From NCBI GenBank assembly GCA_043772355.1, contig JAYVGI010000171.1, positions 1 through 58,934 on the forward strand: a stretch of 58,934 bases of DNA. The letters run 5' to 3'. The notes beneath the pieces were generated by a model, which was not told the DNA's origin, ran no database searches, and saw only the letters and a program-made list of their open reading frames with translations. The DNA is from Polaromonas sp. GTDB lineage: Bacteria > Pseudomonadota > Gammaproteobacteria > Burkholderiales > Burkholderiaceae_C. Below, piece by piece: positions 8,226-58,934 of this stretch. A program made the translations under genes and the position numbers. Within the stretch, counting starts at the first letter, position 1, and each line of letters starts with the position of its first letter.

Positions 8226-8270
8226 CGGCGGCGACCTGGTTCGGGGTGGTGCATGAGACGATGCGTACTC

Positions 8271-8373
8271 ATTCTATTTCCAGATCAATAAGATGCGTTG
8301 TTGCGTCGCCTTGCCGTGCTACAGCACTCTCGTAGGCTACGCGCCTGGCCTCTTATCGATCTGGAAATAGAAT
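8271..8373. repeat. Large imperfect hairpin between convergent genes
   Basis: Arms are attctatttccagatcaataaga (8271-8293) and tcttatcgatctggaaatagaat (8351-8373), each carrying a single unpaired base. The loop is about 57 nt and contains the small hairpin gtgctacagcac. Confidence 0.6.
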
Positions 8374-8529
8374 CACACAATAGCAGTGCTTCGTATAAGC
8401 CGTTCAGCCGATTTTCAAAGCACCAGCGTCTGCACGGCCGAAAACGGACCGCGAGCGCTCGGTAGAGCGCACTGGGGACACCCCGCTGAAGCAACAGCGG
8501 GCAGGTAGACGCGCTCGCCCGGAACGGGG

Positions 8530-10935: not shown

Positions 10936-10984
10936 CGCTATGCATTGCGTAGCTGCTCACGTATATTTAATGCTGGCTATTGGC
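10936..10984 (+). repeat. ATAGCTGCT-type dispersed repeat copy
   Basis: cgctatgcattgcgtagctgctcacgtatatttaatgctggctattggc. Inverted relative to the copy at 10763..10806. Confidence 0.7.
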
Positions 10985-44004: not shown

Positions 44005-44354
44005 GAGCCAGTTTGTGCACCACAAGGGCTCTCGGTCAACAGGGCTAGCAGCCATGGCGCGCGGACTGTTCAACACCAACGACAGCATGGACAGGCCTTG
44101 CTCGGTATGAGCGTTTCAAGCAAGGCTCCTGCACGTGTGGTGATACCGGGTGTAATCGGCAGCAGCTGCGCATGGCGCTGGGTCAGCATCTTCTTGAGCG
44201 CCAGTAGTTCGGTTTTGTTGTGCATACCTTGCACTAGTTCAAAGTAGCTCACCTAAGAAAGAATCAAGGCAGGCAGTTGGTTCAGCCGCTGGGTTGCTTG
44301 AGGGTAGCCTCGCAGATGCCAGATCAGTACATCGGTACCAACGAGTACGTTCAT
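44005..44354 (-). pseudogene. Decayed PIN-domain (VapC-like) toxin gene
   Basis: The reverse complement from the ATG at 44354 reads MNVLVGTDVLIWHLRGYPQATQRLNQLPALILS*VSYFELVQGMHNKTELLALKKMLTQRHAQLLPITPGITTRAGALLET... It has an in-frame TAG, and the C-terminal part is out of frame. Confidence 0.55.
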
Positions 44355-44533
44355 GGAATATTTCGTGCACCATCACGCCCATAGCGCGGCTCTCTCAGTT
44401 TGCGCACATAAGCTGGTACATCCGCCATGTCTTGTCTATCGCGCCAGATACCAAAAGCGGGATCACTGGTCTCAAAAGGCACTTCTTGCACGACCTCTTC
44501 TTCAATGCGCACGCGCACTTGGGCAGACCCCAC
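44351..44533 (-). pseudogene. Remnant of the cognate antitoxin (stop overlaps the vapC-like ATG, ATGA)
   Basis: C-terminal ...DPAFGIWRDRQDMADVPAYVRKLREPRYG resembles the tails of some VapB-type antitoxins. No convincing N-terminus or start. Confidence 0.4.
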
Positions 44534-44944: not shown

Positions 44945-45184
44945 TTAATGGCGCGGGCCACGCGCAGCGCGCGCCGCCTTGACTTCGGCATTGATCTCTT
45001 GCATCGACATCGGCGCAATATCCGCCGCCGCCACGCGCCCGGCAATGGACAACAACGAATCCGCCGCCGCACGCCTGCGCAGTGCCTGCGTGAGCAGTCT
45101 GTCCAGGGCTTGGGGGGTTAACAAACCAGCCGCACGCGCAGCCAGGGCGGTGGTGTCGGGCAATTCAATTTGCAGTGTAGTCAC
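44945..45184 (-). CDS. Orphan antitoxin-like protein (no toxin gene downstream)
   Basis: 79 aa. MTTLQIELPDTTALAARAAGLLTPQALDRLLTQALRRR...MSMQEINAEVKAARAARG resembles antitoxins that normally precede PIN toxins. Repeats occupy the position where the toxin would be. Confidence 0.5.
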   Translation of the reverse strand: MTTLQIELPDTTALAARAAGLLTPQALDRLLTQALRRRAAADSLLSIAGRVAAADIAPMSMQEINAEVKAARAARGPRH

Positions 45185-45241
45185 AAGTGTATTCCTCTAC
45201 TGAAAAGTCACCAATCTGCGTCCATTGTATGAGCCAATGCA

Positions 45242-47906
45242 TTGCGCCGCCAAACGTGGTCACTATTCGGTGACGCACGCAAGGGCTTCGAAGGCCACAA
45301 AGTGACCTATGATCGAAACGGCAACCGTACCAGGGACACCACCTACGGCAACCAAGTCAGCCGAGGCGCCGATATCTATCTTGGCACCAACACCGCAGGC
45401 AACTTAGTCGCCTACACCTTGGAGAACTACGAGTCCAGCCGGTACAACAACCACTACACCATGGCCCTGGAGCGGAGCCGACTTTAACTTTGGCTACCAG
45501 CCGATCAACGGCAACTACCCCAGCGCCAGCGTCGGCAGCTACCAGGTAGCCACCGGCGACACCCTGCAAAGCATCGCCCAAGGGGCCTACGGCGACAGCA
45601 GCCTGTGGTACCGCATAGCGGATGCCAACGGATTAGCCAGCAACGCTGACCTGCGTGTGGGCCAAACCCTGAGCATCCCCAACCGGGTAGGCACCGTGCA
45701 CAACTACGGGGCCAACAGCGCCGCCGGGGGTGCCAGCGGTACCGGCAGCTTCAAACCCTATGACCCGAGCAAGGTGCAGGGGGACAGCACGCCCAACTTG
45801 CCCGCACCGCAGGCTGAAGACGGTGGCTGTGGCGGTTTGGGGCAGATACTGATCATCATTGTGGCGATTGTGGTTACGGTGGTGACCTATGGGGCAGCAG
45901 CCCAAGCCGGTGCCAGCCTCATCGTAGCCGGTGCAGTAGGCGGCGCAGCCGGTGCCATCGCCAGCCAAGCGGTGGCTATCGCCATCGGCCTGCAAGACGA
46001 CTTTAACTGGAAAGGCGTGGCCCTGGCCGCCATTGGTGGGGCCATCGGCGGCGGGCTGTCCACATATGCTCCACTAGGTGGGGCCGTCAACAGCACCGCC
46101 AACGTCATCGTGCGCGCTGCCGTAGGCAATGCAATGACCCAGGGCGTCGCCGTGGCCACCGGCTTGCAAGCCAAGTTTGACTGGAAGGGCGTGGCCATCG
46201 CCGCCGTAGGCGCAGGCTTAGGCAGCGCTGTGTCCGAGGGCTTGGGCGACAGCGTCATGCGCGACGACGACGGCAACGCCTTCCTGGATGCCAAAGGCAA
46301 CTTTGAGCGCTGGAAGGGCAGTGGCGTGATGGCCGAGCTGGGGCGCAGCGGCGACATCATCCGCAGCAGCCTGTCAGGCGCGGCGGCTGGCATTACCGCA
46401 GCCAGCATGCGCGGCGGGCGGGTTGACATCACACGCATCGCCTCGGACGCCTTCGGCAACGCCCTGGGCAATAGCTGGGGTGAGCAGATCAATGCCAGTG
46501 TGCAGGAGGGGAAACTGCGCGAGGTGAGTGCTGGGCAGCAGGGCACGGGGCCTTATTCGGCAAACGATTACCGCAATGGCATGGACATGGATAGTGATAA
46601 CTACAACCCAAGCCAAGCTTGGGGTACCAGTCAATCGATTGATCGAAGCGGTTTTTCTAGAACAAATGCACTCATGGCAGACAGTTCAAATCCATCGTTT
46701 GTGATGGATCTTCCACCCAGCGATGAGGAGCTCAATGCAAACGGTGAACGCCCCGGCCTTGTTGCTGGACCAGGCGTAGCCAAATCAGGGCCAGGTATCC
46801 GCGCCCGTAGCCAGGCTTTGATGACGCAATACTTGGATGCAGCTTATCTACCCGAAGGTCAAGAACGCCTGCGCGCACAACACGAAAGTTTATTGGGTAT
46901 TCGGCAACTGCTGGGTGAATATGACAGTAACCCCAAATACTTGCAAGACGAGCTGGCCAATATGCAGCAGATGGCCTCGGGAGGAAAGGGCTTAGTCGGG
47001 CAGCGTTTTGGTGGCACTTCTGCCGATCAGCCTTACAGCATGATTGAAGTGGCGGCTGGTTCGGTTCTGAATCAAAACGCTCTGGGTCTTGGCTCAATCA
47101 TGATGCCCTTGACCAGCAATGAATTCTCTTTCCGCCGCAATGGTGATGCCATGGGTGGATTCATGGCATTGCTGTCCATGGCGGATCGCGATGGTGTGAT
47201 TGATGGCTTACGCGACATTGGTAATCAAGAGGTCAATGCCTTTGGGCGTCCGATGAATGCCTTACAGTTTGCCGGCACTCGGGAATCGGCCGGTAGTGTG
47301 ATGATGATGCTTGGCACGAGCCCTGCGCTAGCTGCTGGGCAGTTTGCACGAGGTGTTGCCACCAGTAAAGCGATGGCAGCAGAGGCTTGGGTTCAGGGTG
47401 CTGCTAACAGGTATTTGTCGCAGGTGGACGTGCGGGGGAGTTCGTTCTTGGCGGATCAGGCGTTGTCCGTTGGTAGTTCAGTACGAGTTCTCCCGAAGAA
47501 CTGGCAGGGACCTTCTGCGGGTACGGGGCGTTTTGTTGGTGAAAAAGGCAACTCTGAATTTGTTCTTAGCAGCAGCGCAGCAAAAGAGTTGAATCTTCCA
47601 CAAGGTACGACCGTTCGATTTGTGAATGGTACACCTGACTTCGGACCACAAACTATCAAGACACCAGCGGGAACTTCCGGTAGCTTCAGCGTAGAAGAAT
47701 TAACGTATAGTCGTGGTAACGACGCTACAGCCACAGTTAGGCACTTAGCCAATGAGTCAAACATGACACCAAGTCAGGTGAGAGCGTGGTTGAGGGAGCA
47801 AGACGTTCGCATGCACCACTTCCAGGGCAACGTAATGCAACTGGTACCAACGCGGTTGCATCAAGTTGTGCACCATACGGGCTCGGTTGGAATGAGTGGA
47901 AAGTAA
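45242..47906 (+). pseudogene. Orphan polymorphic-toxin module 1: YD-repeat fragment joined by deletion and frameshift to LysM, TM/Gly-zipper region and an HNH/EndoVII-fold (WHH/GH-E-like) nuclease C-terminus
   Basis: 45242-45476 (frame 2) reads ...YDRNGNR...AGNLVAYTLENYESSRYNNHYTMAL. From about 45474 (frame 0, open from 45408, no ATG) it reads GADFNFGYQPINGNYP..LysM..GCGGLGQILIIIVAIVVTV..., near-identical at nucleotide level to 53520-54330. About 350 nt (equivalent to 53585-53935) are missing at the junction. The C-terminus is ...RMHHFQGNVMQLVPTRLHQVVHHTG. Confidence 0.75.
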
Positions 47907-47909
47907 AAA

Positions 47910-48359
47910 ATGTCGATCAACAGCATACTTATCAAAAAGATTCAGCCTATTTATTCGCAGTATGAGCCTGCCAGCGAACTTGAAGTGGTAGAGGCCGAAC
48001 GCGTTATAGGCGCGAGATTCCCTGAAGTGTTACGTGATCTCCAGCTTCACTACGGCCGTCTAGGGTTTGCTGGTGATACACGTATCTGGTGCGATGAGTT
48101 GAGCGACCAATTGTCTCCATTTACAGTTTTTGGATGCAAAGGTGACAAAGGTAATTTGGTAATGGATTACACCGACCATCCTGATTTGCAAGCTCGAAAA
48201 CTAGTTCCATTTGCGGATGATTTGTTAAACAATAGGTTTGTATTTGACGTAACAAGTGAAGCCATCTATTTTGTAGACTACTGTCGAACTCGTGCAATTT
48301 ACCCGTTAGCAAGTTCGCTGAGCGAATTCTTTGATCGAATCGAACTCATCCCCGAGTAG
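47910..48359 (+). CDS. SMI1/KNR4 (SUKH-1) family immunity protein
   Basis: 149 aa, starting 4 nt after the toxin stop. The N-terminal pattern ...SELEVVEAERVIGARFPEVLRDLQLHYG... and the overall size fit SUKH immunity proteins. Markedly lower GC than its surroundings. Confidence 0.75.
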   Translation: MSINSILIKKIQPIYSQYEPASELEVVEAERVIGARFPEVLRDLQLHYGRLGFAGDTRIWCDELSDQLSPFTVFGCKGDKGNLVMDYTDHPDLQARKLVPFADDLLNNRFVFDVTSEAIYFVDYCRTRAIYPLASSLSEFFDRIELIPE

Positions 48360-49783
48360 TAATGCCTTTGGCAATGCGTTGGGGAGCAGCTGGGGTGAGC
48401 AGATCAATGCCAGTGTGCAAGAGGGGAAACTGGCGCAGGTGAATGCGGAGAACCAGCGGGAGGCCAACCGGTTTGCTTCGGGGGCGCAGGCGAATGCGGC
48501 GTATGCCAGCAGCAATCGCTTTGCCGCGATAGATGCGATGGCCGCAGGCGCTTCGGGTTATGAGTTCACGCCTGATATGAGCCCAGAAAACGCCAGGGCG
48601 CTGCGCCAGACCATGGGATTGAATGTCAATGATCTGAATGAGCCGGTGTTGGTGGCGGGGGGCGAGGGTTTTGTCGTTAGGGAGCGGTAAATTGCATGTG
48701 TTGCCGGTTGGTCGAACAACCTTTTTGGACGATACCGGCGACTCTTCCACCCTTGATCAGCTCAAAAAGCTTCAATCAGAAATAGGCGCACTGAAAAACG
48801 CACAACGACTGCGTAACGAAAAAGCCAATACAGAGCTGGGCTTGAAACTTGACCGTCTATCGCCGATTACGAAGGGCAGCTACGGCGATGAAATGCCCTT
48901 TGACGTAGGCTATGTAGACAACACCACGCCGCAGCCCGGTGCCTCCAGCGGCACGGGCCTGAGCCTGAGCTCGCGCACAGGCTTTAACCTGCAAAGCAGC
49001 GGCCAAGGTCTGTATACCAACGGTGGGCCACTGGACAACTTTGGCAGAGGCTTTAGCGGTAGCAATAGCTGGAGCGTGCTGGAGGGCGATCAACCCATCT
49101 CCTACACCATAGGCAGCGGCCTGCGCTCTGGGCTGGGCCTGTTCGTCGGCGAAGAAGACTTCCACCAAGCAGGCCAAGCCTGGCAACGCGGCGAGTATGG
49201 CTCGGCATCAATGTACGCGCTGCGAGGCGCTGGCGCGGCTGGATTGACAGTGGCGACAGCGGGGCAGTTTGCACTGGCTAAGGCTGGGATGTCGGGGGTG
49301 GTGGGCGGGACGGGGTTGCGGGCTAGTGCAGCTTCCGGAGGTGTGGCCCATCCGCTTGCAGGCATGGCTCCAACGGACGTTATCAATTCGGTGCAGCAAT
49401 TAGGCCTTCAAACGGGGCGCGACGAATTGCTCTTATGGTCGGGCTTAGGCCGAGGCCGTGAAGGCATCATTCGCTCTCAGGAGTACGCAGCACAGAATGG
49501 TGGCCGTACATTAGAGATGACACCAGGAGGCAAATGGCTAGACAGTATGGATCTATATGGCGCGCATTCGCCCTTTACTCGTTCTGAAGCGGATCATATA
49601 TGGGGCTCAGTGTCTAAATCGTTAGTCGAACAAGCTAGCGGCCAAGTGCGCGCGTTGCAAGGCCAAGTAAGGCCAACTAGCGTATTTCGCCAGATAGAAT
49701 TACCCGCGCTGCAAGCAAACCCTAACATCTTGGGATTAGACCCTGTACGACTTAAACCTGCTTATCAATTTGGAAGAAACTAA
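48360..49783 (+). pseudogene. Orphan polymorphic-toxin module 2 (junction motif + linker + ADP-ribosyl-cyclase/CD38-like C-terminal domain), frameshifted
   Basis: Begins directly after the immunity stop with (D)AFGNALGSSWGEQINASVQEGKL; there are 32 identical nt to 46473-46504. The frame-1 stop is at 48688-48690, and reading continues in frame 2 (ORF 48638..49783). A G6 run lies at 48657-48662. The C-terminus is LLLWSG...RTLEMTPGG...HIWGSVSKSLVEQASGQV...SVFRQIELP. Confidence 0.7.
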
Positions 49784-49784
49784 T

Positions 49785-50084
49785 ATGTTTACTTGGCTCA
49801 ATAAACAAGGTGTGCGCAGTGAACGCGGATTCGAAGTTCAATTTACTGGGCGTTTCGATGCCGAGTATCGGGAAGAAAGAAAATGCGTTTCTTTCCAAGT
49901 TGAGGCTGGTTTGAGTGGTGGGCTGCAATGCATCATTGTTGACCCTCACATTTTCGAGCACTGGGATGGCGGCGCCGTAGTTGAAAATATCTCGCCACTT
50001 CAACAATCTCAGATGTTTCAAAATCTGCGAGAAGCTATGGAATTTCAAGGATTAAAGTTAGTGGTGGAAAAAGCCGAGAGCTGA
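49785..50084 (+). CDS. Putative immunity protein for module 2
   Basis: The ATG lies 2 nt after the toxin stop. 99 aa, low GC: MFTWLNKQGVRSERGFEVQFTGRFDAEYREERKCVSFQVE... Assignment is by position only. Confidence 0.5.
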   Translation: MFTWLNKQGVRSERGFEVQFTGRFDAEYREERKCVSFQVEAGLSGGLQCIIVDPHIFEHWDGGAVVENISPLQQSQMFQNLREAMEFQGLKLVVEKAES

Positions 50085-50090
50085 AAACGC

Positions 50091-50119
50091 TCGCAATCGC
50101 AATCGCAATCGCAATCGCA
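50091..50119. repeat. (TCGCAA)4-5 hexanucleotide microsatellite
   Basis: tcgcaatcgcaatcgcaatcgcaatcgca, read directly from the sequence. Confidence 0.9.
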
Positions 50120-50180
50120 CACAAGGATCACTCATTTCCCATTTTGATGCGCTCCAGCAAGGGGTCGCAAGCACAAGCAA

Positions 50181-50336
50181 GGACCACGAGGGTCACAAGG
50201 ACCACGAGGGTCAAGTCTCCCATTTCCCATTTTGATGCAGTCAACTCGCTATCAGCATAAGCGCTGCAAATCATTTCCTACACCGACTACGCTATTTATT
50301 ACGTAGCTTCTCCCACAATATTTTAAATGGCTACAA
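50181..50336 (+). repeat. Island composite repeat, type A (gaccacgagggtc tandem + gtcaagtctcccatttcccattt + ...gcataagcgctgcaa... + ATAGCTGCT-type unit)
   Basis: 50205-50336 aligns with 57266-57400 along its whole length. Confidence 0.75.
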
Positions 50337-50499
50337 GACCACCAGCATAAAAAAATCGGCTCGATAATCGGCGAATTTGTGCGCTTTTACGCCGCCGCCA
50401 ATAGCCTGCAGCCCAATAGATAATTGCGCAAGCATCTACTGAATATGTAGTGAGTGAGTGAGTCGCACTGTGCGACCACCTCAGCGCGTACAGTTTGCG

Positions 50500-50943
50500 C
50501 TACTTGGTGTGGGAAGGCTTGACAGCTGTGGTCTTCTTTGCTGCACTCAGCACTTTGGCCTTGGGTTTGACCACCTCTTTGGGATGCACAAAGCCAATCG
50601 GCCTTTTATGCGCCACAGGCGCGGCCAGCAACTGGCGCATGGAATCGATCAACTCCGCAATCGCCTGGTCATGTTTGCTTACTTTGCGCTCCAGCAAATG
50701 CAGCTTGTTGGACAGCTCCCGGTTCGTTGCCAGCATGCTGCGCAGTTGCACAAACGCCTGCACTACGTAGATGCTCAACTCTGTGGCACGCGGTGAATTG
50801 AGCACCATCGATGCCATGATCGCGCCATGCTCTGTGAACGCCATAGGTGCATAACGGCGACCACCCCGGCCATCGGGCTGGCGGCAGATAAAGCCTGCAA
50901 AAACGGTACAGCTCAGGCATTTATTGCTCAGTAAACTATGCAT
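50500..50943 (-). pseudogene. 5'-truncated ORF6N-domain (KilA-N-related) protein gene
   Basis: From ...GGRRYAPMAFTEHGAIMASMVLNSPRATELSIYVVQAFVQLRSML onward it matches the C-terminal two thirds of ORF6N proteins. The N-terminal DNA-binding part is absent and the first 25 codons or so look unrelated. Confidence 0.55.
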
Positions 50944-50953
50944 CGCTTCGCAA

Positions 50954-51352
50954 CTAAGCTGGCCAAATACTGTGCACCTGCAGGTCTGTCACTCGCTTGA
51001 AATCATCGACATTACCCGTCAATAAGCCAATACCTTGCACAATGGCGGACGCGGCAATGACTGCGTCGGGCAGCTTCAAGCCAAACTGCTTGCGTATGCG
51101 TATGGTGTCTTGCACCACTGCCTCAGTCAATGGTATCTCGTGCAACTTGCTCAGCAACTGGCCCATTTGCTGCAACGTGATGTCGCTGTAGCCCTTCCAG
51201 CCCAGCACCTCAATGCGCGTGATCACGCTGATGTAGGCATTTTTGGCATCCATCGCTTGTCGCACAGATGCCTTCACCTGGGCAGACAGGGTGCCCTGTA
51301 AGTTGTAAATCAAAACATTGGTGTCTAGCAGCAAAGGCATAGAGTGAGCCAT
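50954..51352 (-). CDS. vapC: PIN-domain toxin (VapC-like)
   Basis: ORF 50954..51376. The ATG at 51352 overlaps the antitoxin stop (TAATG). MAHSMPLLLDTNVLIY... and ...DAVIAASAIVQGIGLLTGNVDDF show a typical PIN acidic-residue pattern. Confidence 0.85.
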   Translation of the reverse strand: MAHSMPLLLDTNVLIYNLQGTLSAQVKASVRQAMDAKNAYISVITRIEVLGWKGYSDITLQQMGQLLSKLHEIPLTEAVVQDTIRIRKQFGLKLPDAVIAASAIVQGIGLLTGNVDDFKRVTDLQVHSIWPA

Positions 51353-51609
51353 TACACACCCAGGGGTCGATCCCATTCAGCACGCATAGCGGCTAGCTGG
51401 GCATCAATATCTGCGCGGCTGGCGTGGCCTAAAGCACCGCTTAGCTGTTCAAACAGGCTGTAGGCATCGGACGGTGCATTTTGTGCCGGTGTAGTTAGCG
51501 CATTAGTGTCTACCACCACGATGACTTCATGGCGTTCTGGCAGGGCAGGCGGCTGTCCTAGCCAAATAAGCTGTGATCCTTCAAGCTGTGCTTTGTAAGT
51601 CTGCAACAT
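51352..51609 (-). CDS. Cognate antitoxin (DUF104-like N-terminus)
   Basis: 85 aa. MLQTYKAQLEGSQLIWLGQPPALPERHEVIVVV... Translationally coupled to the PIN gene. Confidence 0.6.
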   Translation of the reverse strand: MLQTYKAQLEGSQLIWLGQPPALPERHEVIVVVDTNALTTPAQNAPSDAYSLFEQLSGALGHASRADIDAQLAAMRAEWDRPLGV

Positions 51610-51740
51610 GATGCACTCCGTGGTTTATCAAAACATTCAATATCTATCTATTGTAGGCATGCAGTGCAGTTTAGGAGCATTTAGTGTGTCGGCACAGACT
51701 ATTTGCCCAACAAAACAGCCGATAGTCTTGGTATTGACAC

Positions 51741-52018
51741 ACAAGGGTCAGGTCTTGAAATGCAACATCGCAGGACCACGAGGGTCGGACCACGAGAGTC
51801 AAGTCTCCCGTTTCCCATTTCTACGTAATCAGTTTTCGACTGATGCGCAAGCATCTGGTCAATCCATCTTGACTGAGAGCAGTCAAAAATCGAGGTTAGA
51901 TGAAGTTAAACCTGATACCCAACGCATCTTCGTTGGCATGTAATAGTGCAGCTAAAGACGATACCGTATTTGCTACTAACTCCATAGCTTTTCCCGCTAT
52001 ATTCTATTGGGCTACAGC
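51741..52018 (+). repeat. Island composite repeat, type B (full-length reference copy)
   Basis: acaagggtcaggtcttgaaatgcaacatcg + gaccacgag tandem + gtcaagtctcccgtttcccatttctacgtaatcag... + aaaaatcgaggttagatgaagttaaacctgatacc... + ATAGCTGCT-type unit (51967-52018). Its halves recur separately at 57140-57260 and 56866-56994. Confidence 0.75.
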
Positions 52019-52139
52019 CCGATGTATCTCTAAAAATAATCAAAAAATAGATAGATGGGCAACCAAAACCCAATTTCCAGACCGCCAGAGCATCAGCCCA
52101 TGGAATCGCATTTCCAGGCCCCACAGAAATCCCAAACGT

Positions 52140-52562
52140 CTAGTGGTGAGCAGGCTCTTGCAGCAACAGCGCTGTGAACCCCGCTTGGCTAAAGTGGTGG
52201 TCAGCGGCCAAAGCGTGTGTGATGCCTCGCTCGCGCATCAGCTCAAAACTGGCGCAGTCGCACAGGCTCCAGTCTTTGTCATGGTGCTGCGCAAACAAGG
52301 CAATGGCTTTGTCCCGCAGGGTCGCGGTGATGGGTGCGGTTTCAATCGACAGGTCGTGCAGTAAGGTGTGGATGATGGCGCTGCCCACAGCGCGGTTAGC
52401 CGCTTTAGAAAACGCCGCGCCCACCTCAAACACCACTGCCTCGGTGGTCAATAGCGGGCAACGCTCACGCTGTATCTGGCTTTGCAGCGCAGCCGCTTGC
52501 GCATGGTAGGTGTCTTTCGGCGAGAACAGGGCAATCAAAAACCCTGTATCTAAAAACCACAT
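52140..52562 (-). CDS. vapC: PIN-domain toxin (VapC-like)
   Basis: 140 aa. MWFLDTGFLIALFSPKD... The start overlaps the antitoxin stop by 1 nt. Confidence 0.85.
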   Translation of the reverse strand: MWFLDTGFLIALFSPKDTYHAQAAALQSQIQRERCPLLTTEAVVFEVGAAFSKAANRAVGSAIIHTLLHDLSIETAPITATLRDKAIALFAQHHDKDWSLCDCASFELMRERGITHALAADHHFSQAGFTALLLQEPAHH

Positions 52563-52777
52563 CAGCGCAGCACCTGTTCAAAGTTGACCGAGTAGTCGGC
52601 AGGCGCATCAATGCGCATGGTGGAGGCCAGCTCCCACAGGCTAGGCACGGTGGTGTTGGCAGCCTGCGCGGGCCGCACAATCACCTCAACCTCTTCGCCA
52701 GGCACCAAGCGCGCGTCTACAAGATGCACGGCATGGTGTGCATCGACCCGGATTCGTTCGCTAATCACAGCATTCAT
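52562..52777 (-). CDS. Cognate antitoxin (DUF104-like)
   Basis: 71 aa. MNAVISERIRVDAHHAVHLVDARLVPGEEVEVIVRP... Coupled to the PIN gene. Confidence 0.6.
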   Translation of the reverse strand: MNAVISERIRVDAHHAVHLVDARLVPGEEVEVIVRPAQAANTTVPSLWELASTMRIDAPADYSVNFEQVLR

Positions 52778-52884
52778 GGCATTCCTTTGCAGCGCGGTGC
52801 GCCAGTAAACGCCATTGTAGGTGCAGCGTGTAGTGGGTGCAGGTTGGATGGGTTGCTTTGCCTGTTTACCCTATGATGCTAGTC

Positions 52885-52932
52885 GCTATTTATTCAGTAG
52901 CTGCTACCGCACAATTTTATTGGTCTGCAGCC
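52885..52932 (+). repeat. ATAGCTGCT-type dispersed repeat copy
   Basis: gctatttattcagtagctgctaccgcacaattttattggtctgcagcc. Confidence 0.7.
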
Positions 52933-53057
52933 CCATAGACACCTTAAAAACAGCTCCCGCACGGTCGTATTAGCAGTTCAAAACCGATTTTCGAGTCTCC
53001 TGCGCCCTCGGAAGCCTCAAAATTGACCATTTTCAGCCCTTTTCAAGATGCAAATCC

Positions 53058-53104
53058 GCCTGTAGTCCAATGGAATATTGCGAGAGCAGCTACGCAATAC
53101 ATAG
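53058..53104 (-). repeat. ATAGCTGCT-type dispersed repeat copy
   Basis: The reverse complement is ctatgtattgcgtagctgctctcgcaatattccattggactacaggc. Confidence 0.7.
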
Positions 53105-53120
53105 CATTTATTTTCAATGA

Positions 53121-56100
53121 GGAGGCTACTATAGTAGCACCACCGAGTCCAGCCAGCCCCTCTACGGCCCCAGCTACAGCGCCACCCAAGGCCAGGCCAC
53201 CGAGACCTACAGCTACGACGCGCTGAACCGCCTGAGCACCGTCACCCGCGACGGCACCTTGGTAGACACCCGCGTCTACGACGGCGCAGACCGCGTGGTG
53301 CAGACCGGCCCGGCTGGAACACTGAGCCAAGCCTACGTCAACGCCCTGTACGGCACCAACGCCGCAGGCAGCGCCAACCCCGGCAACGGCTCAGAGACCC
53401 GCGTCAACCGCTTTGACGACAACGGCCGCTTGCTCACCCAAGTCGTCTACAGCGCAGACAACACCCTGAGAAACGTCATCAACTATCAAGGCGGCTACGA
53501 CGGCGCAGGCAACCTGACTGCCTACACCCTGGAGAACTACGAGTCCAGCCGCTACAACAACCACTACACCATGGCCCTGCAGCGGGCAGGCACCTACCAA
53601 CAAGCCTCCACCAGCGGCACCAGCACCCTGTTCACCCCCGGCACCAGCCGCAGCCACTACGACGTCAACGGCAACCTCACCGCCATCACCGACGACACCA
53701 AAGGCGAGAACAACCGCAGCTTTGTCAACGACATCAGCGGCAAAGCCCTGCAGGTCAGCCAAAGCGGCAATGTGCAGCGCCAACTGGTGGTGGGCGGCGA
53801 AGTATTGGCCCGCTACGGCGTGGGCATTGACGAAGTCAACCCCCGCGACTCCAGCGGCAACCCCAACTTCGCCCCCATCGGCACCAGCAGCGGGGGCAGC
53901 GTCATCGGCGCCATCCCCGGCCAGGTGAGAAACGGGGCCGACTTTAACTTTGGCTACCAGCCCATCAACGGCAACTACCCCAACGCCAGCGCAGGCAGCT
54001 ACCAGGTAGCCACTGGCGACACCCTGCAGACGATTGCCCAAGGGGCCTACGGCGACAGCAGCCTGTGGTACCGCATAGCGGATGCCAACGGCCTGAGCGG
54101 CAACAGCGACCTGCGCGTGGGCCAAACCCTGAGCATCCCCAACCGGGTAGGCACTCTGCACAACTACGGGGCCAACAGCGCCGTGGGGGGTGCAGGCAGT
54201 ACCGGCAGCTTCAAGCCCTATGACCCGAGCAAGGTGCAAGGCGACAGCACGCCGAACCTGCCTGGGGCCAGTGGCGGGGAGGATGATGGCTGTGGCGGGA
54301 TGGGGCAGATCTTGGTGATCATTGTGGCGATTGTGGTCACGGTGTATACGGCGGGTGCGTTTGCGGCAGCCAGTGGTGGCCTTACGGGTGCGGCGGCAGG
54401 GGCCACCGCTGCTGCCGCAGGTGGTGGAGCCGCAGGCACCTTTGCTGCTGGTGCAGCCGCATTGGGCGGCACCTATGGCGCAGGCGTTGCAGTGGCGGCA
54501 GGTGTGATCGGCGGCATCGCAGGCTCGGTGGTCAGCCAAGGCGTAGGCATCGCCATCGGCGTACAAACCGAGTTCAGCTGGAAAGGCGTAGCCCTGGCCG
54601 CCATTGGCGGTGCCGTCTCGGGTGGGCTAGCAGGAAGTGGCGCATTTGCCGGTGCGGGCCTGGGCAGCGTCATCACCCGCGCAGCGGTAGGCAACGCCCT
54701 GACTCAGGGCATAGCCGTTGTCACCGGCTTGCAAGACAAATTCAGCTGGAAAGGCGTGGCCGCCGCAGCCGTAGGCGCAGGCGTGAGCTTTGGGGTGAGC
54801 GAAGCCCTGAGCGCAGCCAACAACGGTGCGGGTGCCTTTAGCAGCTTGGGCGAGGTTGGCGGCAAGCTGGCCCGCGCCAGTCTGACAGGCTTTGCCGCAG
54901 GCCTGGCCACCGCAGCCGCACGCGGCGGCAGGGTCAGCATCACGCAGGTGGCCACCGATGCCTTCGGCCAGGCGCTGGGCGAGAGCTTTAAGGACGGGCT
55001 GGTGAGTGCGGGGCAGCAGGAGATGGCGCTACGGGATGCGCACAGTGAGAACCAGCGGCAGGCGAACCGCTTTGCTTCGGGGGCGGCTACAAACTTGGCC
55101 AATTCACCTGGCGCTGCAAGCCAAGCGACTGCGCTGGCGCAGGATGAGTTGTTGGGTGGGGGCAATATACGAGCCAGAGGACTCACGGCAGCGGACTTCG
55201 CCAGCGGCACCCAGTTTGACGACGGTGCAGGTGCAATGAACCAAGACTGGGAAGACAGAATGGCTGTGAACTACGGTTCAAAGCCGCAAAACGCACTTTA
55301 TCGTCCTGGTGAGGAAGATGCGGCTCTTATCCAAGTCGCTGATAAATCCAATGGTAAATCGATACCCTTAGACACTGAGAGCGCGAAATTTGGAATTGTG
55401 CGGGATAAACCAGGCGAATACGTCAAGCAAGTGAAAGACCTCCTGAAATCTGCTCCAGATAGTGCCTCCACAGCTGTAACAGAGGAGTTGGTCGAGAAAT
55501 ACGGAAAAGACCTTAAGGGACTCGTGAAGCAGGGAGTTGGAAGTTCGATGACTGGTTCGTCAAAGGCCGACGGGTTTGCTAACAATAGCTACGACATTCG
55601 ACCATACCCTGAAGAAGCGTTGAACAATACAAGCAATTTAACGTACCATAAGTATGGGCTCATAACTTATCTTGGCCCGGTTGATCAAGAGCTGGGTATC
55701 GATAAAGAATTTGTGCGTAAAGAGGTACTTGAAAAGCGCTACGGTTTTCCCGGCAAGAACCTTGAGCCTGCGCCTGCAAACATCGGTGGAAATTCAGTAG
55801 TATTTGCAGTTCCTGTAGGCAACGTGATTCCTTCTTCTAAACTAGATAATCCAAATAACTATACCTACCCAATAGGCGTAATTACTCAGGAGCGCGTGCC
55901 CGACGGCATTGTTAATATTACGACTGAAAAACATGATGTGTATCCTGGTACGATTAGGCGCACAGTTGTTGAGGTCGACGGCCATTTATTTATGTATACG
56001 AGTGGTGCTGGCGAGAACCGTTATAACAACGAAGGACTCAACGTTCGGCAACCAGCAGAGGGCCTTGCTGGGCAGGGTTTTGCACAACTGGTGACCCGAT

Positions 56101-56201
56101 ACGCAGCGGCTGCCGGTAACGATAACTATGGGCCGCTGGCTTTCAGAGCGCTGGATCGACAAGCGGTTGGGTATCTGAACACGATAAGGGCTAAACGTTG
56201 A
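53121..56201 (+). CDS. Polymorphic toxin, longest copy (YD repeats - LysM - Cys/TM helix - Gly/Ala-rich FxWKGVA repeats - DAFGQALG junction - unassigned C-terminal domain); 5'-truncated, no ATG/RBS
   Basis: The frame is open from 53121 (stop TGA at 53118-53120). Homologous YD sequence (YSYDALNRLSTVTRDGTLVDTRVYDGADRVVQT) begins about 53200, directly after dispersed repeats. The ORF track starts at a TTG at 53259. LysM: YQVATGDTLQTIAQGAYGDSSLWYRIADANGLSGNSDLRVGQTLSIP. Whether it is expressed is uncertain. Confidence 0.75.
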   Translation, partial: GGYYSSTTESSQPLYGPSYSATQGQATETYSYDALNRLSTVTRDGTLVDTRVYDGADRVVQTGPAGTLSQAYVNALYGTNAAGSANPGNGSETRVNRFDDNGRLLTQVVYSADNTLRNVINYQGGYDGAGNLTAYTLENYESSRYNNHYTMALQRAGTYQQASTSGTSTLFTPGTSRSHYDVNGNLTAITDDTKGENNRSFVNDISGKALQVSQSGNVQRQLVVGGEVLARYGVGIDEVNPRDSSGNPNFAPIGTSSGGSVIGAIPGQVRNGADFNFGYQPINGNYPNASAGSYQVATGDTLQTIAQGAYGDSSLWYRIADANGLSGNSDLRVGQTLSIPNRVGTLHNYGANSAVGGAGSTGSFKPYDPSKVQGDSTPNLPGASGGEDDGCGGMGQILVIIVAIVVTVYTAGAFAAASGGLTGAAAGATAAAAGGGAAGTFAAGAAALGGTYGAGVAVAAGVIGGIAGSVVSQGVGIAIGVQTEFSWKGVALAAIGGAVSGGLAGSGAFAGAGLGSVITRAAVGNALTQGIAVVTGLQDKFSWKGVAAAAVGAGVSFGVSEALSAANNGAGAFSSLGEVGGKLARASLTGFAAGLATAAARGGRVSITQVATDAFGQALGESFKDGLVSAGQQEMALRDAHSENQRQANRFASGAATNLANSPGAASQATALAQDELLGGGNIRARGLTAADFASGTQFDDGAGAMNQDWEDRMAVNYGSKPQNALYRPGEEDAALIQVADKSNGKSIPLDTESAKFGIVRDKPGEYVKQVKDLLKSAPDSASTAVTEELVEKYGKDLKGLVKQGVGSSMTGSSKADGFANNSYDIRPYPEEALNNTSNLTYHKYGLITYLGPVDQELGIDKEFVRKEVLEKRYGFPGKNLEPAPANIGGNSVVFAVPVGNVIPSSKLDNPNNYTYPIGVITQERVPDGIVNITTEKHDVYPGTIRRTVVEVDGHLFMYTSGAGENRYNNEGLNVRQPAEGLAGQGFAQLVTRYAAAAGNDNYGPLAFRALDRQAVGYLNTIRAKR

Positions 56202-56224
56202 TGAGAGCTAAACAAGGAAATATT

Positions 56225-56800
56225 ATGATGCCTCTCGACAAAAAAACTGTCACGGTATTGGTTTGTCTTTTTTCGTTTATTTGGACTGGATGTATGGCAC
56301 TTGAACAAAAGTCAACTGATTCGGCGATCAAGCTCGTCAAACGCATGAAAATTGAGGAGATGATTATTTTTGGTTTTAAAAGACCATTTCTAGTTGGCCT
56401 TCAAGCGGTAACAAAAGAAAATTTAGATGCGCAACGTTATATGGCATGCCTCGACAGTGTAGATCGCACCACGATGAGAGCTGGTATTGCGGAGAGAATT
56501 GTTGAAAAGTTTACTGCTTCAGAGCTTTTAGATGCTCTGCAGTTTTACGACAGTGAGGCAGGTGAGAAATTTGTTTTGCGTACAAACGCGCTAGTTCTGA
56601 GGGAGATGGGTATTTCTCAAACTCCGAATCTACCTGTGGAAGAGTTAGATGACATTGCGAGGAGTCGAGTTGAGAGTTTTAAGCGTAGTCCTGTAGGAAA
56701 AAAAATTGAGGCCGAAGGATTTTTCAGTTCCTCAGAATACCTCCTACCAGGGCTTCAAATCATGCAAAAAAGAATTGAGTGGTGCCAATCGCAACCATAA
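56225..56800 (+). CDS. DUF2059-like lipoprotein, putative periplasmic immunity protein for the 53121..56201 toxin
   Basis: ORF 56198..56800. The ATG at 56225 follows aaggaaa. Signal and lipobox MMPLDKKTVTVLVCLFSFIWTGC. The segment EKFTASELLDALQFYDSEAGEKF resembles the DUF2059 signature (f.T.eEL..l..FY.Sp.G.K). Low GC. Confidence 0.55.
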   Translation: MMPLDKKTVTVLVCLFSFIWTGCMALEQKSTDSAIKLVKRMKIEEMIIFGFKRPFLVGLQAVTKENLDAQRYMACLDSVDRTTMRAGIAERIVEKFTASELLDALQFYDSEAGEKFVLRTNALVLREMGISQTPNLPVEELDDIARSRVESFKRSPVGKKIEAEGFFSSSEYLLPGLQIMQKRIEWCQSQP

Positions 56801-56865
56801 TAAGAGCCTGACGCAAGCACTCAGAGCGATCAGTTTGGTATATGCGACGGTAGACTAAGGAGGCG

Positions 56866-56994
56866 TAAGTGGGGTCGGATCAAATAAAAACTGATACCTA
56901 GCGTGTGTTCGCTGACATGCAAGAACGCGGTAAAAGGGTTGTAACCGCTACTAACTAAATAGCTGCTACCGCAATAGTTCATTGGGCTAGAGGC
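56866..56994 (+). repeat. Island composite repeat type B, 3' half only (with ATAGCTGCT-type unit 56947-56994)
   Basis: ggggtcggatcaaataaaaactgatacctagcg...gctactaactaaatagctgctaccgc aligns with 51893-52018. Confidence 0.7.
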
Positions 56995-57028
56995 ATATAT
57001 TGTCGGTAAATTCAGCCTCCCGTCCGGT

Positions 57029-57137
57029 GCAGCACCAGCAGCAACGGCGTAGTCACCGGCACCATCCCCGGCCAAACGCGCAACGGGGCCGACTTCAACT
57101 TTGGCTACCAGCCCATCAACGGCAACTACCCCAGCAG
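57029..57137 (+). pseudogene. Toxin-gene fragment of about 110 nt (…GTIPGQTRNGADFNFGYQPINGNYPSS)
   Basis: Aligns with 53880-53990 of the long copy. It is bounded on both sides by island repeats. Confidence 0.7.
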
Positions 57138-57139
57138 CC

Positions 57140-57400
57140 GCGAGGGTCAAGTCTCCCGTTTCCCATTTCTACGTAATCAGTTTCGACTAATGCGCAAGCA
57201 TCTGCCAATCCATCTTCACTGAACGCAGTCAAAAATCGGGGTCAAATGAAATTAAACCGGCCAGGAGAGTCAAGTCTCCCATTTCCCATTTCCCATTTTC
57301 ATGCAGTCAACTCGTTATCAGCATAAGCGCTGCAAGTCATTTTTCACACCGAAAACGCTATTTATTACGTAGCTGCTCTCGCTGTATTTCAAAGGTAAGC
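57140..57400 (+). repeat. Island composite repeats: type B 5' half (57140-57260) followed by type A (57263-57400)
   Basis: gagggtcaagtctcccgtttcccatttctacgtaatcag...aaaaatcggggtcaaatgaaattaaaccgg, then ccaggagagtcaagtctcccatttcccatttcccatttt...ctatttattacgtagctgctctcgc. Confidence 0.75.
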
Positions 57401-57610
57401 GTCCGGTAAACCCATCTTGCACTCAAGCGCCCAAGCACGCACAAGCGCAAGGGTCAGGTCTTGAAATGCAACATCGTAAGCCTTTGGAACACCTGTCTTG
57501 AAGACGGTTTTGACCGTGGTAACGCATCCAAGGTTACGGGGCTCTCCCAGCGCCTTGCGCTCGCACTAAAGCGGCAGTCTTGAGCGGCTTCAAGGCGTCT
57601 ATCCTCCGTC

Positions 57611-57652
57611 GGCCTATGAGAAATATGCGCAAGCAGCTACGCAATGCAGAGC
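57611..57652 (-). repeat. ATAGCTGCT-type dispersed repeat copy
   Basis: The reverse complement is gctctgcattgcgtagctgcttgcgcatatttctcataggcc. Confidence 0.65.
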
Positions 57653-57700
57653 ATCTATTTTCTCAATTGCGTGCTTTTTTCATAGCCTTTGCTCAATCCC

Positions 57701-57901
57701 TTACCCCATCGCCTCCACCAGCTCAATCTCGCGTTGGAGCAAATCATTGACCAAGGCCGACAAGTCAATGCCCTTGGCCTGCGCTTTGGCAGCCAGGTAG
57801 CCTTGCACCCGCTCGTCCAGATACACGGGGAGTTGAAATACCGCGTTAGCTTGGTAGAACTTGCCGCGTTGGCCTTTTGAAAAGTCGTAATGTTCGTTCA
57901 T
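57701..57901 (-). CDS. brnA: BrnA-type antitoxin (RHH/CopG-like)
   Basis: 66 aa. MNEHYDFSKGQRGKFYQ...VYLDERVQGYLAAKAQAKGIDLSALVNDLL, downstream of brnT in the toxin-first order typical of BrnTA. Confidence 0.8.
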   Translation of the reverse strand: MNEHYDFSKGQRGKFYQANAVFQLPVYLDERVQGYLAAKAQAKGIDLSALVNDLLQREIELVEAMG

Positions 57902-57946
57902 GCTATCACCTTAAAAGTGGGTACTTTGACAACCGTTTTAGCTACC

Positions 57947-58273
57947 TTATCGCGGGGCCTGCTCATAGTCTTGTCGCTCTTGCTTATCCGCCTTGCGGGC
58001 GGAGATTAGCCGCACCTCAATGTGCTGGGCATCTAGCTGCACAAAGGTGTGTACCACCACCAATGTTTGGCCATTTTCAGCCTGCCCCATGCTCACCCAG
58101 CGCTCTTCCTGGTCGCTATGCTCATCATCGTAAATCGTTAGGGCCAAGGGGTCATGCAGGACAGTGCTAGCCAACTGAAATGTCACCCCATCGTGCTTTT
58201 GCACGTTGGTGCGCTCCTTGTTGGAATCCCATTCAAAACGGTACAGCGGCCTGGGTGTCATGCTCGCCATCAT
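57947..58273 (-). CDS. brnT: BrnT-family (DUF497) toxin
   Basis: 108 aa. ...YRFEWDSNKERTNVQKHDGVTFQLASTVLHDPLALTIYDDEHSDQEERWVSMG...LVVVHTF...IRLISARKADKQERQDY is the typical BrnT pattern. Confidence 0.85.
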   Translation of the reverse strand: MMASMTPRPLYRFEWDSNKERTNVQKHDGVTFQLASTVLHDPLALTIYDDEHSDQEERWVSMGQAENGQTLVVVHTFVQLDAQHIEVRLISARKADKQERQDYEQAPR

Positions 58274-58335
58274 ACCCGCCTAAGAATTCGATTTCAAAAC
58301 CGATCTGCTGGATCAGCCCGAAGAAATAGACCCTC

Positions 58336-58859
58336 AGCACCAGCCGCAGCCGGTACGATGTCAACGGCAACCTGACAGCCGTCACCGACGACAACCAGCC
58401 AGCCAACAACCGCAGCCTCATCAACGACCTGAGCGGCAAAGCCCTGCAGGTCAGCCAGCAAGGCAACGTGCAGCGCCAACTGGTCGCGGGCGGCGAGGCA
58501 CTGGCCCGCTACGGTGTGGGCATTGACGAAGTCAACCCCCGGGACAGCAGCGGCAACCCCAACTTCGCCCCCATCGGCACCAGCAGCGGGGGCAGCGTCA
58601 TTGGGGCCATCCCCGGCCAAACGCGAAACGGCGCTGACTTTAACTTTGGCTACCAGCCCCTAAACTCAAATCATCACGGCAACTACCCCAGCGCCAGCGC
58701 ACGCCCAACCTGCTGCCAGCGCCTTGTGACGGCGGGGGCGGGGGTTGTGGAGCGATGGGGCAGATCTTGGTGCTAATTGTGGCCATTGTGGTTACGGTGC
58801 TGACTTATGGGGCAGCCACGGCCGCGCTTGGTACAAGCTTAGGGCCTGTTAACAAATAA
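58336..58859 (+). pseudogene. Toxin-gene fragment 3 (YD/pre-LysM segment fused by deletion to the Cys/TM helix; LysM missing; frameshifted; premature stop)
   Basis: Reads ...SRYDVNGNLTAVTDDNQPANNRSLINDLSGKALQVSQQGNVQRQLVAGGEALARYGVGIDEVNPRDSSGNPNFAPIG...GADFNFGYQPLNSNHHGNYPSASA. In another frame it then reads ...CGAMGQILVLIVAIVVTVLTYGAATAALGTSLGPVNK*, with the stop at 58857-58859. Confidence 0.7.
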
Positions 58860-58934
58860 CATAAGCAATATCAACCCGATAGAATTTGATAATTCCAATC
58901 ACCATGGAACTCATGTCGCACGAGCTTGATAGCC

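Follow-up and report, generated by a model that had tools for sequence, protein, structure and literature searches.

Between nt 45242 and 58846 of contig JAYVGI010000171.1 (assembly GCA_043772355.1, Polaromonas sp.; nt 1 – 58,934 were analysed and are referred to as the window), five segments of the + strand, designated cassettes M1 to M5, preserve the rear parts of a large toxin gene that encodes YD repeats and a LysM domain. All five are truncated at the 5' end, and three of them (M1 to M3) run into unrelated C-terminal toxin domains (CT1 to CT3), each of which is followed by a predicted immunity gene. No complete toxin gene is found at the locus. With moderate confidence, the region is interpreted as a headless orphan array of toxin/immunity cassettes, with roles as immunity repertoire and recombination reservoir. 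The arrangement itself is already known from other toxins; what is unusual here is mainly that a complete gene is not found next to the array.

Cassette structure and predicted toxin/immunity pairs

The five segments had been described as paralogues in an initial annotation made from the sequence alone, and comparison of nt 45000 – 58934 with the whole window (blastn, tblastn) placed their similarity far beyond chance, with blastn E values from 1e-136 to 1e-15. M1 and M3 are 88% identical over 415 nt (45473 – 45881 vs 53933 – 54344, E 1e-136) and 92% identical between 45394 – 45475 and 53504 – 53585, and M3 and M5 are 87% identical between 53634 – 53963 and 58330 – 58659 (E 1e-105). Shorter matches join M3 to M4 (53881 – 53995 vs 57032 – 57145, 84%; tblastn E 1e-12), M1 to M2 (46449 – 46531 vs 48364 – 48446, 87%) and M2 to M3 (48448 – 48486 vs 55047 – 55085, 92%). 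The cassette segments have no nucleotide match below position 45000, and no further paralogue was detected elsewhere in the window by either program.

Cassette M3 (nt 53121 – 56201, +) is an open frame of 1026 codons that begins with a YD stub (53121 to about 53990; Pfam RHS_repeat PF05593 at 3.4e-6), followed by a LysM domain (54000 – 54143; Pfam LysM 1.3e-7), a transmembrane (TM) helix recognised by hydropathy (54303 – 54365), two FSWKGVA repeats (54573 – 54593 and 54741 – 54761), the junction motif DAFGQALG (54957 – 54980) with a linker behind it, and the core of toxin CT3 (about 55341 – 56198). Cassette M1 (nt 45242 – 47906, +), delimited by paralogy and domain coordinates, has a shorter YD stub (45242 – 45487), LysM (45540 – 45683), a TM helix (45840 – 45902) followed by two F[N/D]WKGVA repeats, the junction DAFGNALG (46446 – 46469) and toxin CT1 (46531 – 47906); its longest open reading frame (ORF) is of 749 aa and starts at GTG 45657. 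The length of scaffold kept by the window copies ranges from about 30 to about 650 residues.

Most of the copies are scarred. M1 lacks 347 nt (corresponding to 53586 – 53932 of M3), and because of this loss, which the initial annotation had put at roughly 350 nt, the frame changes at about nt 45475; M1 carries further deletions as well. M2 had been annotated as a single segment (48360 – 49783) but consists of two frames: a scaffold remnant with linker (48331 – 48690, +), in which a breakpoint after LVAGGEGF at 48673 is followed by a stop five codons on, and a toxin frame (CT2, 48692 – 49783, +) that lies +1 relative to its own linker. The remnant includes the junction NAFGNALG (48361 – 48384) and, as had been proposed, is a mosaic, in which an M1-like piece (48364 – 48446) is joined to an M3-like one (48448 – 48486). 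M4 (57032 – 57145, +) is a remnant of 38 codons from the region just 5' of LysM. M5 (58336 – 58846, +) has a YD stub, a frame shift and a TM helix (58758 – 58844), and lacks the LysM segment equal to 54000 – 54143 of M3, a deletion correctly recognised at the outset; its homology stops at 58846, where the window departs from sister contigs, and not at 58859 as first given.

These features favour pure decay, i.e. that a former toxin locus lost its head gene by deletion and survives as a wreck in which cassettes and immunity genes are functionless, any intact frames reflecting recent acquisition or gene conversion. The deletions and frame change of M1 fit such a history, as do the reduction of M4 to a scrap of 114 nt, the loss of LysM and the frame shift in M5, and the M2 toxin, whose frame differs from that of its linker in every population contig. 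Against this, the toxin and immunity ORFs, three of each, are all intact. Decay most likely produced M4, M5 and the deletions seen in M1 and M2; as an explanation of the array as a whole, decay appears unlikely, for reasons of selection and recombination given below.

Past the shared [D/N]AFG[N/Q]ALG junction, the sequences of M1, M2 and M3 are unrelated, and each continues into a small ORF of low G+C content that starts 3 nt (M1), 1 nt (M2) or 26 nt (M3) past the toxin stop, much as initially described. The G+C content falls stepwise from the scaffold (64 – 66%) through the toxins (47 – 56%) to the immunity genes (42 – 45%). Judged by sequence, the C-termini are real toxin/immunity pairs, in which the downstream product is predicted to neutralise the toxin.

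CT1 ends in a WHH/HNH-like motif (47787 – 47903), its matches to the Pfam families WHH (E 0.0017) and Colicin-DNase (E 0.047) both failing the cut-offs, and a WHH-type end is also found on family member P0015. The adjoining immunity gene 1 (47910 – 48359, +, 44% G+C) belongs to the SUKH/SMI1_KNR4 family (Pfam PF09346 5e-9, PF14568 7e-7), and SUKH proteins are known partners of WHH/HNH-like nucleases. Pfam thus bore out the early SUKH call for this gene, and likewise the DUF2059 call for immunity gene 3 (56228 – 56800, +, 42% G+C; PF09832 2.3e-7).

The C-terminal domain of CT2 (about 49172 – 49780) was identified as an ADP-ribosyl-cyclase (ARC) toxin. Its profile matched PDB entry 9ro8_A, an 'ADP-ribosylcyclase toxin', at E 1e-20 and the Aplysia ADP-ribosyl cyclase at 6e-4. 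Among 1.84 billion representative proteins the domain has 780 homologues, always at the extreme C-terminus and in host proteins of up to 2986 aa. In Pandoraea communis, a CT2-type domain (59% identity) ends a family gene of at least 2886 aa, and a homologue of immunity gene 2 (63% identical) lies directly 3' of it (L018, 8664 – 8951); toxin end and partner together occupy 8231 – 8951 of that locus. Immunity gene 2 of the window (49785 – 50084, +, 45% G+C) encodes 99 aa and gave no match in a Pfam search; as it recurs beside the same toxin type in P. communis, it is a candidate for a new immunity family.

CT3 has 17 homologues, all of 191 – 390 aa. Pfam, NCBIfam and PDB sequence or profile searches gave no match for it. 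An AlphaFold model of nt 55341 – 56198 reached a predicted local distance difference test (pLDDT) score of 85, and Foldseek comparison of this model with the PDB produced non-significant START/helix-grip-like matches (best E 4e-3, TM-score about 0.2 – 0.46); the best match in a viral library was likewise non-significant (E 0.06). The DUF2059-like immunity protein 3 has a signal or lipoprotein-like N-terminus (…VLVCLFSFIWTGC; the lipobox was judged by eye), which suggests that the target of CT3 is periplasmic.

The toxin family and the missing front end

The 1026-codon frame of M3 matches 160 proteins, mostly named 'LysM peptidoglycan-binding domain-containing protein' or 'YD repeat-containing protein', from hosts that include Variovorax, Ramlibacter, Pandoraea, Cupriavidus, Roseateles, Achromobacter, Acidovorax and Herminiimonas. 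Its scaffold is 35 – 56% identical to the 120 YD/LysM proteins listed, and the C-termini of these relatives differ (WHH, AHH, HNH-type, colicin DNase and bacterial RNase A according to Pfam). Since a common scaffold carries many different toxin domains at its end, these proteins form a polymorphic toxin family. The junction motif is present in 93 of the 120, with a median of 430 residues past it, and a scan of one genome per species returned 525 relatives with identities of at most 51%. A literature search, in which XadM was also looked up, found no paper describing a polymorphic toxin family with LysM and YD repeats, and the family appears to be experimentally unstudied.

Complete family genes are very long, for example 3013 codons in L008 (3947 – 12985) and 3608 codons in L039 (1982 – 12805). 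In these two proteins Pfam recognises RHS repeats (8e-130 in L039) and LysM only. Complete members share the order N-terminus (MVAIVSGNSLGL…GR.G…YVNVA.GNLV.Q…RTYNS), YD repeats, LysM, TM helix, Gly/Ala-rich FxWKGVA repeats, DAFGNALG and variable toxin, and the immunity gene lies 3' of the toxin gene. Nine complete loci have the N-terminus, as does P0017, a naturally occurring mini form (1174 aa; L096, 10001 – 13525) in which it is fused straight to the last YD segment. This N-terminus matches no Pfam trafficking domain. No PAAR, VgrG, TcB or signal-peptide domain was found by Pfam in complete members, and at two loci checked by eye the genes 5' of the complete toxin are not secretion genes. 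Some members of the family also carry RTX (HemolysinCabind) repeats.

Membership of the canonical Rhs or CdiA groups was considered and rejected, as neither set of defining motifs is present. PxxxxDPxGL, the core motif of Rhs, is missing from M1, M3, L008, L039, P0025 and P0029, so that the family bears YD repeats and yet is not canonical Rhs; neither a CdiA VENN-type motif nor a Pfam haemagglutinin match was found. A structural model of the M3 scaffold had a mean pLDDT of 52, with the YD hairpins and LysM modelled reasonably and the TM and repeat part not.

Measured against this architecture, M3 has the full order from YD through LysM, TM helix and FxWKGVA repeats to the junction, M1 has all of it except most of the YD part, and in M5 nothing remains but the YD stub and the TM helix. 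In alignments with the 1646-aa protein P0029, M3 begins at about residue 732 and M1, with internal deletions, at about residue 686; M5 spans about residues 903 – 995 plus the TM helix, and M2 keeps the junction only. No region of the window matches residues 1 – 685 of P0029 by tblastn, in agreement with the initial view that an N-terminal trafficking domain is lacking throughout.

Truncation as such is common in the family. Copies without a 5' part lie 3' of long genes in L013, L018, L023, L039, L043, L062, L063, L073 and L080, and truncated copies begin at points equivalent to P0029 residues from about 480 to 1035, many of them near 690 – 760. A headless arrangement is seen in Achromobacter pulmonis, where an IS3 element is followed by a short junction-plus-toxin orphan and then by a truncated cassette of 1091 codons. 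Only in its missing head gene and its interleaved toxin-antitoxin (TA) genes does the window thus depart from what is typical of the family.

That no full-length gene is visible at the locus, as first noted, was confirmed from contigs of many metagenome samples, in which the array is bounded by an aldo-keto reductase gene at one end and a histidine-kinase gene at the other. An identical reductase is present in 17 contigs, and at each of the eight listed places that extend past it the left boundary has the order reductase, 79-aa ORF, M1. This ORF (44945 – 45184, -) is directed away from M1, its start lying 57 nt from the 5' end of M1, and it is kept at the same position in all population contigs that reach this point; it had no match in a Pfam search, and is labelled antitoxin-like on the style of its sequence only. 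Nearer the reductase, on the - strand of nt 44070 – 44533, the C-terminus of a VapB-type antitoxin (44351 – 44533) and a PIN fragment (44070 – 44252) were recognised by eye, without a Pfam match; on account of these ORFs, a TA-rich island may begin just past the reductase gene. A 499-aa ORF farther away (13727 – 15226) groups with proteins labelled Fic/DOC family in one source, and is unrelated to the array.

At the right boundary, the M5 remnant of L001 and L006 continues for about 320 nt and stops at a hybrid histidine-kinase gene, a sequence that is replaced in the window by its last 88 nt (58847 – 58934, 37.5% G+C). Contigs of the window's own strain (L003 – L005) break within about 130 nt of position 58846, which points to a repeat inserted in M5; the foreign sequence is probably the end of such a repeat or of an insertion sequence. 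L090 displays further structural polymorphism at the locus: at 7653 – 8808, M1 is cut inside LysM, and the next gene, on the opposite strand, was judged NYN/LabA-like by eye. Both the interruption of M5 and that of M1 in L090 can be counted in favour of decay.

Since the source is a metagenome, the region is rich in repeats and contigs break at 58846, mis-joining of repeats from different genomes into a chimeric contig was also considered. The same gene order was assembled independently in several samples, in contigs of up to 80.6 kb (L003, L004, L005, L086, L087), and the paralogues, at 84 – 92% identity, are too diverged to confuse a 141-mer assembler. An assembly artefact is accordingly extremely improbable and was rejected.

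Among 5.8 billion proteins, only three other truncated cassettes exceed 55% identity to the M3 scaffold. It is possible that a complete gene, perhaps as short as about 1200 aa, resides elsewhere in the genome.

Recombination, selection and expression signals

Related alleles show that the cassettes have been exchanged. L006, which has the same right flank as the window, is 99.6% identical to M3 from nt 54878 on and only 70 – 90% identical upstream; in one window of 100 alignment columns it is 95% identical to M1 and 74% to M3. In L084, an M3 scaffold (94 – 100% identity) with the M1-type deletion switches at about nt 55073 to the M2 linker (96 – 97%), past which lie a new toxin and a 265-aa ORF. 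L085, whose sample also yielded the window-type contig L003, has an M2 linker-toxin fusion, a ParE module, and an M3-type cassette that ends in a third toxin. In both L084 and L085 the M2 linker is about 95 – 97% identical and leads in frame into other toxins. A recombination signal in population data had been put forward at the start as a test of the silent-store idea; the mosaic alleles in L006, L084 and L085 supply it, and decay without recombination fails.

Selection differs along the cassette. Four M3-type alleles of about 1000 codons, which differ at synonymous sites by dS 0.2 – 0.5, are free of internal stops and frameshifts, and from LysM to the junction the ratio of nonsynonymous to synonymous substitution rates (dN/dS) is 0.17 – 0.4. 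These values, together with the open frames, argue against simple neutral decay of the whole cassette. Pure decay is unlikely also because sister strains hold cassette mosaics, in which different toxins sit on near-identical scaffolds, indicating continuing exchange. In its favour remain the M3 5' end, which has no start codon, the behaviour of the YD stub (described below) and the protein searches, in which no close full-length relative was detected.

The array is interleaved with TA modules, as originally proposed: two VapBC pairs, a BrnTA module and further remnants. Each cassette block is preceded by TA genes on the opposite strand. For M1 these are TA remnants and the 79-aa ORF, for M3 an ORF6N fragment with two VapBC modules, and for M5 BrnTA. 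The truncated ORF6N-like gene (50500 – 50943, -) has a weak Pfam match (0.003), and a 210-aa ORF6N gene occupies the same position in L084. VapBC-1 (PIN gene 50954 – 51376, antitoxin 51352 – 51609, -) and VapBC-2 (PIN gene 52140 – 52562, antitoxin 52562 – 52777, -) match Pfam PIN at 1.4e-11 and 1.3e-9, and in L006 and L085 their position is taken by a ParE module. The BrnTA module (57701 – 58273, -) consists of BrnT (57947 – 58273; Pfam BrnT_toxin 1.9e-22), whose start is separated from the 5' end of M5 by 62 nt, and an antitoxin-like ORF (57701 – 57901) with weak CcdA and CopG matches. The two PIN genes and BrnT are thus recognised by Pfam, each beside a small ORF; no interleaved antitoxin gave a significant Pfam match.

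Repeats punctuate the same region. An element resembling a miniature inverted-repeat transposable element (MITE) or a repetitive extragenic palindromic (REP) sequence, to which no strand was assigned, lies at 52885 – 53105 and has inverted arms of 71 nt. The right arm comes to within 13 nt of the stop after which the M3 frame opens, and this arm and its junction with the cassette are kept 5' of M3-type cassettes in L006 and L085 (84 – 86%). The motif GCTACGYAATRMATAGC, part of the inverted arms, occurs six times in the window (0.1 expected), and related repeats are found at 57357 – 57652 and at 10937 – 10953, the latter outside the array. A second intergenic repeat, GAGRGTCAAGTCTCCCRTTTCCCATTT, lies within repeats of about 130 – 190 nt and is confined to the array, with four copies all on the + strand (50206 – 50232, 51794 – 51820, 57142 – 57168 and 57265 – 57291). 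Scans for known RNA elements and for tRNA integration sites gave no Rfam match above noise and no tRNA genes.

The cassettes were initially held to lack any ATG start with a ribosome-binding site. This is upheld for the 5' ends of the cassettes, where no start is conserved, and does not hold for the M2 toxin ORF, which has a plausible TTG start with GGGAG 7 nt upstream. M3 had been said to open after a stop at 53118 inside repeat DNA; the stop (53118 – 53120) stands, and the repeat is the MITE-like element that ends shortly before it. The first possible start codon (ATG, GTG or TTG) of the M3 frame is TTG at 53259. A GAGGAGG resembling a Shine-Dalgarno (SD) sequence at 53110 – 53116 was dismissed as the start signal of M3, since no in-frame start codon follows it. 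At this end M3 lacks 57 nt (19 codons, in frame) that are present in L006 (3495 – 3560) and L085 (3066 – 3130). Just past the junction of M3, GTG 55002 and ATG 55023 are each accompanied by an SD-like sequence. The best promoter-like site of the region is on the - strand (58297 – 58269), and a terminator scan gave counts not above the shuffled expectation.

The possible internal starts raise the alternative that the cassettes are expressed on their own, either as short LysM/TM-anchored toxins (about 1000 aa for M3-type cassettes, or from LysM to toxin in M1) or as TA-like pairs with an internal start. Besides the TTG of M2 and the GTG and ATG of M3, this is favoured by the recurrence of truncated forms of about 1000 – 1100 aa in Achromobacter and Acidovorax, by the purifying selection between LysM and the junction, by the position of the array among bona fide TA modules, and by the precedent of an orphan rhs gene in Salmonella (PMC7043789). 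It is opposed by the 5' ends of the M3-type cassettes (window, L006, L084, L085), at which neither a start codon nor an SD sequence is conserved, and by the absence of a promoter signal 5' of these cassettes. The solitary 1174-aa P0017, moreover, keeps the family N-terminus that the window copies lack, the starts placed at LysM by gene callers are heterogeneous among database relatives, and the immunity protein of CT3 looks exported, which fits a periplasmic toxin and not an intracellular TA pair. Autonomous expression is on balance improbable.

A related and quite improbable reading regards the locus as a self-standing, TA-stabilised and repeat-punctuated cassette system, in which a block would consist of divergent TA genes, a MITE-like repeat, a truncated LysM/TM toxin and an immunity gene. 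Blocks would move and be exchanged as units, and toxins of about 1000 aa, or with internal starts, would act without the giant YD front. Were this so, it would define a short class of LysM-anchored polymorphic toxins that is delivery-independent or differently delivered.

The preferred reading, that of an orphan array maintained as immunity repertoire and recombination reservoir, has to be set against several results that weigh on the other side. The immunity genes are assumed to be expressed, and the promoter scan gave counts at chance level (9 sites, 8.4 expected). A dN/dS of about 0.8 – 1.0 over the first 200 codons of M3, the YD stub, speaks against a functional YD part. Deletions or frame breaks affect M1, M2, M4 and M5, four copies out of five, which fits partial decay. 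The mosaics prove exchange between cassettes and strains, and not exchange with an exported toxin gene. No close full-length relative of the M3 scaffold was found among the 5.8 billion proteins, a search with the M1 scaffold gave short proteins only and nothing both long and close (weak evidence in itself), and in searches of the window and the protein collections no complete family gene has been shown in this organism.

According to the preferred reading, the immunity genes would be the expressed and selected part of the array, protecting the cell when neighbours use the same toxins against it. Having lost the front end, the toxin parts could not be exported and would for that reason be mostly silent. 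The scaffold and linker that are kept would act as homology arms for swaps among cassettes, with incoming DNA, and with any complete gene elsewhere; that the array is a putative silent store feeding an active gene is plausible. The array itself probably formed as older toxin/immunity pairs were displaced one after another, the head gene then being lost or relocated.

Significance and comparison with known systems

The findings extend the orphan-cassette principle of rhs, cdiA and mafB to a large YD/LysM/TM toxin family of Burkholderiales, and indicate that arrays can persist, recombinationally active in a natural population, without an adjacent complete gene. They bear on how orphan toxins are kept, whether for immunity, as a reservoir, or as TA-like modules. 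The ARC toxin with the 99-aa immunity protein, and CT3 with the DUF2059 lipoprotein-like protein, are candidates for experiment.

Orphan cdiA-CT/cdiI and rhs modules that lack initiation signals are functional, and have been proposed to be immunity repertoires and reservoirs (Poole et al., 2011, PMC3150448). The resemblance of the array to these orphans, suggested from the beginning, extends to the shared junction, the unrelated toxins, the immunity genes and the truncation. As in cdiA-CT/cdiI and rhs-CT/rhsI orphans, there are tandem 5'-truncated copies in which a short conserved piece leads to the junction, toxin and immunity gene, and the copies mostly lack initiation signals. Those orphans lie directly 3' of a complete cdiBAI or rhs gene, whereas the window locus is without one, and the junction is [D/N]AFG[N/Q]ALG instead of the VENN motif of cdiA or the PxxxxDPxGL of Rhs. 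Two of the window cassettes, unlike cdiA and rhs orphans, keep 330 – 650 residues of scaffold including LysM and the TM helix, and the interleaved TA modules and MITE-like repeats are likewise peculiar to the window. Standalone toxin cassettes have been described (Zhang et al., 2012, PMC3482391), and the window array matches them.

With canonical Rhs and other YD-shell toxins (PAAR-Rhs of type VI secretion systems, TcC, WapA), the family shares YD/RHS repeats, a polymorphic C-terminal toxin and a downstream immunity gene. It differs in lacking the PxxxxDPxGL that precedes the encapsulated toxin, in the LysM, TM helix and Gly/Ala-rich repeats that separate its YD part from the toxin, and in complete members that are without PAAR, VgrG, TcB or signal-peptide Pfam domains.

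The maf islands of Neisseria contain alternative mafB-CT/mafI cassettes, some with an initiation codon and some 'silent' (Jamet et al., 2015, PMC4287609), and recombination of such cassettes with the full gene was inferred from genome comparison (PMC4287609). The toxin gene family of the window similarly comes with several alternative CT/immunity cassettes, but the MafB scaffold has its own N-terminal domain with a signal peptide, and the cassettes lie 3' of a full-length mafB. In Salmonella, an orphan Rhs toxin without a delivery part is internally expressed and neutralised by its immunity protein, and so behaves as a type II TA module (Starsta et al., 2020, PMC7043789); recombinational activation of orphan rhs in Salmonella is also on record, as cited in that paper. 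The plausible internal start of the M2 toxin is a point of likeness to the Salmonella orphan, from which the window differs in that no internal promoter was identified and one of its immunity proteins appears to be exported.

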